A stretch of DNA of 64,000 nucleotides from Escherichia coli. Its GTDB lineage: Bacteria; Pseudomonadota; Gammaproteobacteria; Enterobacterales; Enterobacteriaceae. A model generated the notes under the pieces. It worked only from the letters and a program-made list of their open reading frames with translations, had not been told where the DNA came from and did not search any database. Where the stretch lies: assembly GCF_003334385.1 (NCBI RefSeq), contig NZ_QOWN01000006.1; one strand, written 5' to 3'. Positions 57,626 to 60,934 of the stretch are shown piece by piece. The number at the start of each line of letters is the position of its first letter. Position 1 is the first letter of the stretch. The position numbers were made by a program, and so were the translations under genes.

Positions 57626-59227
57626 TCAGGATACCACTGGCGCAATTTGTAACTGCACCGACTCATGTCGTGCTACTTCATGTTCTTCAAGGGTAAATAC
57701 CGCCACACGCGACGAAAGATGGTCGGCCTGATTCGCCAGTTGTTCCGTTGCCACCGCCGCTTCTTCTACCAGCGAGGCGTTCTGCTGAGTCACCTGATCC
57801 ATCTGGCTGACAGCCTGTGCAACCTGCTCAATCCCCCGCTGTTGTTCTTCCGACGCAGAGGCAATTTCTCCCATAATGTCGTTCACGCGGGTCACCGAAC
57901 TGACAATATCGATCATGGTCGCGGCGGCGTTATTCACCAGTTTCGAACCCTGCTGGACACGATTGACTGACTCTTCGATCAGCCCTTTGATCTCTTTTGC
58001 TGCCTGCGCGCTACGGCTGGCAAGATTGCGCACTTCACCTGCCACTACCGCAAAACCACGCCCCTGCTCTCCGGCGCGAGCCGCTTCCACTGCCGCATTC
58101 AGGGCCAGAATATTGGTCTGGAAAGCAATTCCGTCGATAACGCTGATAATGTCGCCAATTTTTTGCGAGCTGGTGGCGATCTCCTGCATGGTGTGAGTCA
58201 TGGTACTGACCTGAACACCGCCCGCCTGCGCCGTTGTCGCGGCATTTTTTGCCAGTTCCGACGCCTGTCGTGCGTTATCGGCGTTTTGCCCTACCGTGGC
58301 GGTTAATTGCTCCATACTGGCGGCCGTTTGTGCCAGCGATGCCGCCTGCTGTTCGGTACGACTTGAGAGATCGTTATTGCCTGCGACAATCTCCGCGATA
58401 CCAATGTGCATCTCCTGGCTTCCCTTACGCACATCACTTACCGTCCCACGCAAAGCCTGCTGCATGGTCTTCAGACTGGCAAAAATGGCGGTGATCTCAT
58501 TACGACCATATACCGCAATCGGACGCGCCAGATTACCCGCAGCAATGCTGTCAAAATGGCTACCGATAATGGCCAGTGGTTGAACAATCATCTTGCGCGT
58601 CCACCACAGCGCACTGCTGATGTAGATCGCCGCAACAATAATCATGCTGATAAACACCAGTGCCGAAATCTGATAGTTACGCTGGCTTTGCGCACTGGCG
58701 GCTTCCAGCACATGGTTGATCTCCAGCTGCCAGGCCTCAAAGTTAACGTCAAACGCATTCTGTGATCCCTGCACCGGCGCAGTGAGGAAATCCGAAAGTT
58801 GATTACTTTCAAGCCAGGTCGCCTGATGTTCGAGATCGTTGTGCCAGCGGGCAAAACTTTTCTCCGTCTCTTTTTGCAATCCCCTGACGTGCTCGTTGCC
58901 CGCAGTCATCGCCATAAAACTTTTAAACAGCGTGGTGGATTGCGTCAGACTGGCGCGCGCCGTCGTCATCAACGTTTTAATGTCATCCGCCGGATAGCTA
59001 AGTGCCGTCAGAGTGCCCGCTTTGTTCAGCGCGGTACTGGCCTGTAACATTACCGCCCGAGTTTGCGCTAATGCCGCACGTTGCTGATTGCTCTGCTCGA
59101 CCTGATTCAGTCGTTGCAAATCGTCGCGAAATGCCCAAAAAGACATGCCGTTACTGCCAATCTGCAAGATCCCGCAGAGAATCAAAATTAAAAACAGCGT
59201 GGTCGAAATTCGAATACGATTAAACAT
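57626..59227 (-). CDS. tap: Methyl-accepting chemotaxis protein IV (dipeptide/pyrimidine chemoreceptor)
   Basis: Translation (M)MFNRIRISTTLFLILILCGILQIGSNGMSFWAFRDD... (533 aa from the second Met). Confidence 0.95.
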   Translation of the reverse strand: MFNRIRISTTLFLILILCGILQIGSNGMSFWAFRDDLQRLNQVEQSNQQRAALAQTRAVMLQASTALNKAGTLTALSYPADDIKTLMTTARASLTQSTTLFKSFMAMTAGNEHVRGLQKETEKSFARWHNDLEHQATWLESNQLSDFLTAPVQGSQNAFDVNFEAWQLEINHVLEAASAQSQRNYQISALVFISMIIVAAIYISSALWWTRKMIVQPLAIIGSHFDSIAAGNLARPIAVYGRNEITAIFASLKTMQQALRGTVSDVRKGSQEMHIGIAEIVAGNNDLSSRTEQQAASLAQTAASMEQLTATVGQNADNARQASELAKNAATTAQAGGVQVSTMTHTMQEIATSSQKIGDIISVIDGIAFQTNILALNAAVEAARAGEQGRGFAVVAGEVRNLASRSAQAAKEIKGLIEESVNRVQQGSKLVNNAAATMIDIVSSVTRVNDIMGEIASASEEQQRGIEQVAQAVSQMDQVTQQNASLVEEAAVATEQLANQADHLSSRVAVFTLEEHEVARHESVQLQIAPVVS

Positions 59228-59272
59228 CAACGCTCCCCATCAGGCGGCAATGACCGCGTTAGTAAATACTCG

Positions 59273-60934
59273 TCAAAATGTTTCCCAGTTTGGATCTTGT
59301 TCAGCAATTCGCAGTCGTGGCTGAGCCGGTGGTTGCTCACTGGCAGGACGGGATGGTGTTTGCGGTTTATTGGTGAGTGGGCTGGCTGCCAGACGGAACG
59401 CGGAAACTGCTTGCGTTAAACGACTCGCCTGTTCTTCCAGCGCAGCGGCGGCGGCAGCTGATTCCTGCACCAGCGATGCGTTCTGTTGCGTGACGCGATC
59501 CATTTCCGAAACCGCCAATGCGACTTGATCGATGCCACGGCTCTGTTCATCCGATGCCGATGCAATCTCGCCCATAATGTCAGTCACGCGAGTGACAGCA
59601 TTGACGATATTGTTCATTGTTTCCCCGGCGCTTTCGACCAGCACCGAACCGGTATCAACGCGTGAGACGGAGTCTTCAATGAGGGCTTTGATCTCTTTTG
59701 CCGCCTGGGCGCTGCGACTGGCAAGATTACGCACTTCACCCGCCACCACGGCAAAACCACGGCCCTGTTCACCCGCACGCGCGGCTTCAACCGCGGCATT
59801 CAGCGCGAGGATATTAGTCTGGAAGGCAATACCGTCGATAACGCTGATAATGTCGGCAATTTTCTTCGAACTATCGGCGATCTCATGCATCGTTTTCACT
59901 ACGCCATCCACCACTTTGCCGCCGTGCTGGGCGGTGTCGGAGGCACTTTGCGCCAGTTGCGAGGCCTGGCGGGCGTTATCGGCGTTTTGCTTCACTGTCG
60001 CGGTGAGCTGCTCCATGCTGGCGGCAGTTTCTTCCAGCGCGGATGCCTGCTGTTCAGTACGGGAGGAAAGATCGGTGTTGCCCGCCGCAATTTCACGGGT
60101 ACCGGCATAGATGGCATCTGAACCTTCGCGGACATGAGTGACGGTGTCAGTCAAAGAGCGTTGCATATGTGAAACGCTCTGCGCCAGGTCGCCCATTTCA
60201 CTGCGCCCGTCAATGGTCAGGGTATTCGCCAGGTTACCACCGGCGATTTCGCGAATGTGAGCAATAATTTTTGCCAGCGGAGTAAGCAACATACGGCGAA
60301 TGCCGTACCACGCCACCAGCAGAATCAATACCACCACCAGCGCGATAACCGCCAGTTGCCACTGGGCAAATCGGTAATCATCTGCGTTGTCAGTGACGAT
60401 ATCGCGATACAGTTTTTCACTGCTGAGGGCGTACTGAGCAAACGCTTCGCCCATTGCATTTTGCATTCCCTGGGTTGGCTGAGCGAAATAAGCTCCAGTA
60501 TTGCCATAATCTAGATAATCAATCAGTTCAGTTAACGCTGTGTAATAGTTTTTATATTTTTCATCAATATTACGACTGGTAGCGACCATTTCAGGTAACG
60601 GTGCCATGCTTTTGAATTTTTTATAATGCGTCGCTGCCTGCGCCAATGTTTTCCTGGCGCTATCGAGCAATTCAACTTTGGCGTTACTTTGTTGATTGGA
60701 GGAATCCATCATCATCCGTACCGCTGAACGACTCAGGTTAATGCGCGTTTGCAGCATTAAATCCCAGGTTGACGTCAGCTCGCCCTGCTGTTCCCGTAAT
60801 TGATTGGAAACCACAAAGCTCTTCTGGCTATGGTGAAGGGAAGAAAAAAACAGACTGCCGGAAATAAGCTGTAACAGTGCGAATACCCCCAGCACCATTA
60901 CCAACAGCGTGACTACGCGGATACGGTTAATCAT
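59273..60934 (-). CDS. tar: Methyl-accepting chemotaxis protein II (aspartate/maltose chemoreceptor)
   Basis: Track ORF 59273..60955 trimmed to [37 protein letters not shown]... (553 aa); C-terminal NWETF pentapeptide. Confidence 0.95.

Follow-up and report, generated by a model that had tools for sequence, protein, structure and literature searches.

The window analysed here is a 64,000-nucleotide (nt) stretch of Escherichia coli DNA (contig NZ_QOWN01000006.1). At 55.3-64 kb it carries a minus-strand chemotaxis cluster of motB (partial), cheA, cheW, tar, tap, cheR, cheB, and cheY, in the same order as in K-12 MG1655. Our subject is the pair of adjacent chemoreceptor genes tar and tap, the block of protein sequence that they share, and the natural deletions that fuse them into a single gene.

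The shared block of tar and tap

The tap gene (57626..59227, minus strand) encodes the dipeptide chemoreceptor, methyl-accepting chemotaxis protein (MCP) IV, of 533 amino acids (aa), and tar (59273..60934, minus strand) encodes the 553-aa aspartate/maltose chemoreceptor, MCP II. They are separated by a 45-nt intergenic spacer (59228..59272, minus strand), which is absent from the hybrids described below. These assignments were drawn from the list of open reading frames (ORFs), NCBIfam, Pfam, and RefSeq annotation (for tap, that of identical DNA). Both proteins passed their equivalog models over the full length, Tap scoring 1181.9 bits on NF007309 (NCBIfam; cut-off 903) and Tar 1200 bits on NF011622 (NCBIfam; cut-off 900). 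Pfam returned the usual MCP architecture for each, namely TarH (9e-42), HAMP (2.6e-9), and MCPsignal (5.7e-56) in Tap, and TarH (2.9e-41), HAMP (5.8e-11), and MCPsignal (5e-62) in Tar. The equivalog scores, Pfam domains, and RefSeq annotation thus agree with a preliminary description of this DNA, which had named tap and tar as adjacent minus-strand paralogues; they are tandem, co-oriented paralogous chemoreceptor genes. They lie within 3,330 nt of DNA that several E. coli chromosomes in RefSeq match at 100% identity and a laboratory strain matches at 99.8%. The mechanically derived ORFs begin at in-frame TTG codons slightly ahead of the annotated ATG starts, at 59230 for tap (one codon ahead, 59228-59230) and at 60955 for tar (seven codons ahead, 60935-60955). 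The limits 57626-60934 used in the preliminary description correspond to the annotated tar start.

The same 55-aa peptide, as had been reported, occurs in both proteins with 100% identity, at Tap 360-414 (57986..58150, minus strand) and Tar 362-416 (59687..59851, minus strand). The two copies are direct repeats offset by exactly 1701 nt (567 codons), so that the reading frame is kept in register. At the other offsets from 1695 to 1709 identity was just 21-32%; a chance match or a register error was ruled out, as the sequences align at the 1701-nt offset alone. At the DNA level, 141 of the 165 nt encoding the peptide are identical (85.5%), and over the slightly longer span 57982-58165 the figure is 155 of 184 (84.2%). 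The earlier wording "near-identical" was therefore too strong for the DNA, although the identity lies above the 80% below which that description would have withdrawn the claim. Its repeat spacing of about 1.7 kb was right, but the in-register partner of 57982-58165 is 59683-59866 rather than 59685-59870. All 24 mismatches between the two blocks fall at third codon positions and are synonymous, and 44% of the codons differ.

The block lies within a wider homologous zone of 660 nt that covers the methylation helices and the hairpin, with the Tap side at 57746..58405 and its in-register Tar partner at 59447..60106 (both minus strand; 72% identity). The longest exact runs shared by tar and tap are 24 nt, followed by 18, 16, and 11 nt. 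The N-terminal halves of the two genes are essentially unrelated in DNA.

The 55-aa peptide aligned with Tsr 364-418 in 6S1K and 8C5V and also matched 1QU7 (E = 8e-26) and 3ZX6, all of them solved structures or array models, which identifies the block as the cytoplasmic hairpin tip. The hairpin tip is the site of trimer contacts and of CheA/CheW binding (PMC4692393). The block accordingly provides the CheA/CheW binding surface and the trimer-of-dimers contacts, and its protein sequence is almost frozen across the five E. coli receptors. The peptide shares 53 of its 55 residues with Tsr, 48 with Trg, and 45 with Aer, and pairwise identity among Tar, Tap, Tsr, Trg, and Aer ranges from 44 to 55 residues out of 55. 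The block in the window is the highly conserved hairpin-tip domain of MCPs known from Tsr (1QU7, 6S1K), with no difference. Krikos et al. reportedly first noticed this conserved MCP domain in 1983, on sequencing tar, tap, and tsr.

The C-terminal tails of the two receptors differ, and the comparison made in the preliminary description held in full. Tar ends in QDPNWETF, with the NWETF codons, the docking site of CheR/CheB, at 59276..59290 (minus strand), whereas Tap ends in QIAPVVS (57629..57649, minus strand) and has no NWETF. This pentapeptide, the mark of the high-abundance class, occurs in Tar and Tsr but not in Tap and Trg, and its absence places Tap in the low-abundance class. The pattern adds nothing new to the known division of E. 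coli receptors, in which NWETF serves as the CheR/CheB docking site of the high-abundance Tsr and Tar and is lacking from Tap and Trg (PMC4692393). Two Tap-like proteins from other enterobacterial samples (P0221 and P0239; 547 aa, ~69% identical to Tap) end in GDNWETF. Judged from these relatives, the missing tether of E. coli Tap may be a secondary loss rather than the ancestral state.

Natural Tar-Tap hybrids and their junctions

The preliminary description had proposed that the repeats could recombine to give tar-tap hybrids or a deletion, and had suggested a population screen for such fusions. We carried out this screen in silico on 5,426 complete E. coli genomes, using a synthetic-junction query in which 120 nt from the tap-specific 3' tail were placed next to 300 nt from the tar-specific 5' part. 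The query matches as one place only if the two pieces lie ~1.7 kb nearer to each other than in the wild type. Three genomes (0.06%) gave a matched span of exactly 1,080 nt, 1,701 nt less than the 2,781 nt of the wild type, as expected for an exact in-register deletion. They belong to strains ET474 (frog, China), PEC389 (pig, Korea), and ETEC4088 (pig, Belgium). In each, a single coding sequence of 1,608 nt (535 aa, in frame) annotated as "tar" lies between cheW and cheR. When the 803 sites that differ between tar and tap of the window were scored, the hybrids switched once from tap-type to tar-type, with 801-802 of the 803 sites consistent with a single switch. All hybrids thus consist of a Tar N-terminal part and a Tap C-terminal part and end in the Tap tail QIAPVVS; the NWETF codons of Tar are deleted in every tar-tap fusion.

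Four junction classes were distinguished (all coordinates on the minus strand). Class A, found in ET474 and PEC389 among the finished genomes (contigs L007, L008, and L010-L012 in the full set), has its junction in the longest exact run, of 24 nt (tap 58131..58154, tar 59832..59855; Tar codons 360-368, ADIISVIDG). Class B, represented by the finished genome of ETEC4088 (L009 and L013 in the full set), uses the second-longest run, of 18 nt (tap 58272..58289, tar 59973..59990; Tar codons 315-321, KQNADNA). Classes C and D were found by a protein search seeded with hybrid B, after which their junctions were mapped on the DNA. The class C junction (L014, L015, and L016) falls in an 8-nt run at 58317-58324, within the region tap 58317..58329 and tar 60018..60030; the run could reach 13 nt if the parent shared a polymorphism observed at gene nt 909. 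The class D junction (L017) lies in an 11-nt exact run (tap 58344..58354, tar 60045..60055). The 8-nt class C junction was present in both E. coli and Shigella flexneri backgrounds, which differ at 40 of 4,408 flanking sites (about 0.9%).

Natural junctions tended to fall where the stretches of exact identity are longest, and those of classes A and B occupy the two longest runs in the whole alignment. Under uniform placement of junctions the mean run would be 6.45 nt, the probability that four runs sum to at least 61 nt is 0.006, and the probability that two events both fall in runs of at least 18 nt is 0.005. Only the 24-nt junction of class A lies inside the block that had been proposed as the recombination substrate; the other three classes lie upstream of it, at 58272-58354. 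The proposal was therefore sound in that hybrids exist and one class of junction falls within the block, but too narrow, since with just one of four classes inside it recombination effectively draws on the entire ~660-nt homologous cytoplasmic region, in particular its longest exact runs.

In public assemblies, the class A hybrid protein was found on at least 71 contigs and the class B protein on at least 28, always in the context cheW-hybrid-cheR. The hybrids on L007, L008, and L009 (2501-4108) scored 1049 bits on the Tar equivalog NF011622, above its cut-off of 900, which explains their annotation as "tar: methyl-accepting chemotaxis protein II". In one hybrid-bearing assembly (GCA_907172595.1; L012, 4127-4986), cheR is split into ORFs of 210 and 89 aa, through a frameshift or else an error in sequencing. 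The reciprocal product of an unequal crossover, with the gene order tar, tap-tar hybrid, tap, was found in 0 of the 5,426 complete genomes by the synthetic-junction screen. When a synthetic Tap-Tar chimera served as query in a protein search, no Tap-Tar protein emerged either; the only chimeras recovered were a single Tap-Tsr protein and several fusions out of register, both of which are described below.

Origin of the DNA similarity and of the hybrids

In the tar/tap block, the nonsynonymous divergence (Ka) was 0, the proportion of synonymous differences (pS) was 0.58, and the synonymous divergence (Ks) was 1.11, a saturated value; in a sliding Ka/Ks analysis the flanks had Ks of 0.8-2. The same block compared between the unlinked genes tar and tsr showed 82.4% nt identity and Ks of 1.08. 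Comparisons between species gave values equal to those within E. coli, with 85.5% nt identity both for E. coli tar against Enterobacter kobei tap and for Citrobacter freundii tar against E. kobei tap, and block identity over all the MCP pairs compared was 79-89%. The saturated Ks, the equal values of the unlinked tar-tsr pair, and the equally similar cross-species pairs together point to protein constraint and codon bias as the source of the block identity. Read in this way, the DNA similarity of about 85% would be a passive by-product of these two factors. It probably represents a floor set by them, and does not speak for recent conversion between the E. coli genes.

We consider it highly probable that the locus combines a constrained hairpin tip, passive DNA similarity, and rare in-register recombination or template switching that generates the 1701-nt deletion chimeras. 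Several points weigh against this account. A codon-usage null, with an identical peptide and independent codon choice, predicted an identity of 77 +/- 2.5%, and the observed 85.5% exceeds it (P about 0.001), so that some remnant of shared ancestry, or codon preference at particular sites, is at work; the excess was also seen in the cross-species pairs. The protein search was biased to junctions upstream of the block, as hybrids with downstream junctions would hide in the 90% Tar cluster. Furthermore, the genome and contig counts are inflated by clonal spread, and the independent events are few, corresponding to about four junction classes.

The excess over the codon-bias expectation would also be expected if recent gene conversion, that is, concerted evolution of the tandem paralogues, rather than protein constraint, explained the block similarity. 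Two tar-type bases within the tap-derived part of the Shigella hybrid L016 point in the same direction, as does a tandem pair in E. kobei, discussed below, which suggests that conversion may occur in some lineages. We nevertheless regard this explanation as very unlikely for E. coli, because the block Ks was not below that of the flanks and equalled that of the unlinked tar-tsr pair, and because E. coli tar and tap were no more similar to each other than either cross-species pair. In addition, the longest exact run between tar and tap is just 24 nt, and exact runs between unlinked pairs exceed it, reaching 29 nt for tap-aer and 28 nt for tar-tsr. Gene conversion in E. coli was thus unsupported by the sliding Ka/Ks analysis, by the unlinked tsr, trg, and aer blocks, and by tar/tap of Citrobacter and Enterobacter. 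A DNA or RNA element common to both genes, such as a regulatory site or an mRNA structure, might also keep the nucleotides of the block, and in all MCP pairs the nt identity does to some extent exceed the codon-bias null. However, a pattern in which every one of the 24 differences is a synonymous third-position change and 44% of codons differ indicates selection on the protein, not on nucleotides, and such an element is the least probable of the explanations considered. The hybrids themselves might be artefacts of assembly or annotation arising from collapse of the two repeats, as assemblers can collapse repeats and several of the rarer class C and D hybrids rest on single short-read Logan contigs. 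Against this, identity between the copies is just 72-85%, and no exact stretch common to them exceeds 24 bases, a length too short for k-mer or overlap collapse. The fusion is present in the finished genomes of three independent strains (China, Korea, and Belgium), identical alleles recur across contigs from many assemblies, and each hybrid has one clean switch point and an intact frame. An artefactual origin therefore seems extremely improbable, only slightly less so than a shared nucleotide element.

The E. kobei pair (L021, 1789-5102) consists of a 555-aa MCP gene and tap in tandem, which share a derived Q-to-N change in the block (SANAAKEIK). Of all the pairs compared, it had the highest block identity (89.1%) and the lowest pS (0.41). 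In this lineage, in contrast to E. coli, these features hint at gene conversion.

For the hybrids, the constraint-based account implies the following route. With the in-register copies 1701 nt apart, rare recombination or a template switch at the longest exact runs would yield an exact 1701-nt deletion. Wherever in the 660-nt zone the crossover or template switch took place, 567 codons would be removed and the frame preserved. The resulting 535-aa chimera combines the periplasmic sensing, transmembrane, and HAMP modules of Tar with the distal signalling region of Tap and a tail without NWETF.

The enzymatic route might be either a RecA-dependent homeologous crossover or RecA-independent slippage. 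Shen and Huang are said to have placed, in 1986, the minimal efficient RecA/RecBCD processing segment at about 23-27 bp. The longest run, of 24 nt, sits at this threshold and would thus be of minimal length for efficient RecA/RecBCD recombination. The junctions of three of the four classes fall in runs below 23 nt, suggesting a contribution from a route independent of RecA; the 8-18-nt junctions would resemble slippage more closely. A divergence of 15-28% would be strongly opposed by mismatch repair. With 85% identity and a maximum exact run of 24 nt, the repeat would be a poor recombination substrate. The minimal-length run, the opposition by mismatch repair, and the slippage-like short junctions all fit the rarity of the hybrids among complete genomes.

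Other rearrangements and significance of the hybrids

A far commoner change at this locus is a 1,374-nt deletion within tap (window about 57735-59093), which was carried by about a fifth of the 5,426 complete genomes. This frequency was estimated from about 7 of 40 evenly spaced ranking rows, and the deletion accounts for most of the 1,104 genomes without full coverage. In deleted strains (e.g. L001, NZ_CM169498.1), a pseudogene fragment of ~150 nt is left and tar is intact with its NWETF. Both ends of the deletion fall within a pair of imperfect direct repeats of 15 nt, TGGTCGGCCTGATTC and TGCTCGACCTGATTC, which are identical at 13 of 15 positions. The tar/tap repeat was consequently rejected as the cause of widespread tap loss, since this deletion is intragenic and has its own repeats. 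Natural loss of Tap in B2 and uropathogenic E. coli (UPEC) has been reported (PMC3559539, PMC12623472), and the 1,374-nt deletion is this known Tap loss, which Lane et al. in 2006 and Borziak et al. in 2013 are said to have described. Like the hybrids, it is natural, occurs at the same locus, and affects tap, but it is internal to tap, leaves tar intact, and is about 300 times commoner.

Several rarer rearrangements were also observed. One protein (P0135; L019, 3001-5877) is a 958-aa "double receptor" in which Tar 1-526 is joined in frame to Tap 102-533 through a 432-nt deletion. Other out-of-register Tar-Tap chimeras, among P0017, P0018, P0027, and P0028, are 771, 688, and 680 aa long and have a partly duplicated cytoplasmic domain. 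Such out-of-register fusions were rare, each being found on only 1-2 contigs. A further chimera, Tap(N)-Tsr(C), with NWETF at its C-terminus (P0136; L018, 476-2128, Logan ERR13324381), has the 3' end of tar ahead of it and, behind it, lgoT and lgoR, genes that normally follow tsr; these flanks point to an ectopic tap x tsr exchange or an inversion. Its switch, at tap gene nt ~1092-1098, lies inside the conserved block. This chimera rests on one short-read contig of 5.4 kb, and an artefact of assembly at k=31 would need a much longer shared run than the one at the switch.

Variation in the wider layout was seen as well. In strain ES3 (L002, NZ_CM184350.1, 4695-5447), the 5' end of tar is truncated beside an IS1A element, which is another route of receptor loss at the tar/tap locus. 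On a Citrobacter freundii contig (L020), a 419-aa gene of the sodium:dicarboxylate symporter family (SDF; 1981-3240) lies between cheW and tar, and cheR directly follows tar with no adjacent tap. The tandem tar-tap layout is thus not universal among relatives of E. coli.

The conserved MCP tip, the paralogy of tar and tap, the difference in NWETF, and the formation of tar-tap hybrids are already established chemotaxis genetics. Slocum, Halden and Parkinson reportedly found in 1987 (J Bacteriol 169:2938) that many spontaneous tar-tap deletions, arising between the homologous 3' parts of the two genes, are recombinational fusions giving Tar-Tap hybrids, and Weerasuriya, Schneider and Manson are said to have engineered Tar-Tap and Tap-Tar chimeras in 1998. 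The hybrids found here share the architecture of the laboratory ones, in which recombination between the direct repeats reportedly puts the Tar N-terminus in frame with the Tap C-terminus, with the loss of one receptor gene and of NWETF. They differ in coming from wild isolates (pig, frog, and human-associated) and in having junctions mapped to runs of 24, 18, 11, and 8 nt. A literature search, whose coverage left out most relevant journals, found no mention of natural tar-tap fusions. The wild hybrid alleles, their junctions, and their masking by annotation are the sole mildly new element, and a modest one.

The possibility that recombination joins tar and tap, although known in principle, is now backed by natural recombinants. 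The DNA identity of the block itself should not be taken as a sign of gene conversion. Strains carrying a hybrid would be predicted to keep aspartate/maltose sensing, to depend on Tsr in trans for adaptation, and to lose dipeptide taxis. The Tar-Tap fusions might be more than rare neutral accidents, namely receptor variants that recur, circulate, and are maintained in certain E. coli and Shigella lineages associated with animals, but this seems rather unlikely. The observations behind this reading are the contig counts of classes A and B and the occurrence of one 8-nt junction in both an E. coli and a Shigella flexneri background. If they are maintained, an aspartate/maltose sensor without its own NWETF may usefully alter the kinetics of adaptation or the stoichiometry of the receptors. 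Because the hybrids are annotated as "tar", chemoreceptor surveys would miscount Tar and Tap in strains that carry them, overlooking the fusion and the loss of NWETF. The natural junctions also constitute a data set on homeologous deletion between tandem repeats that are 72-85% identical.

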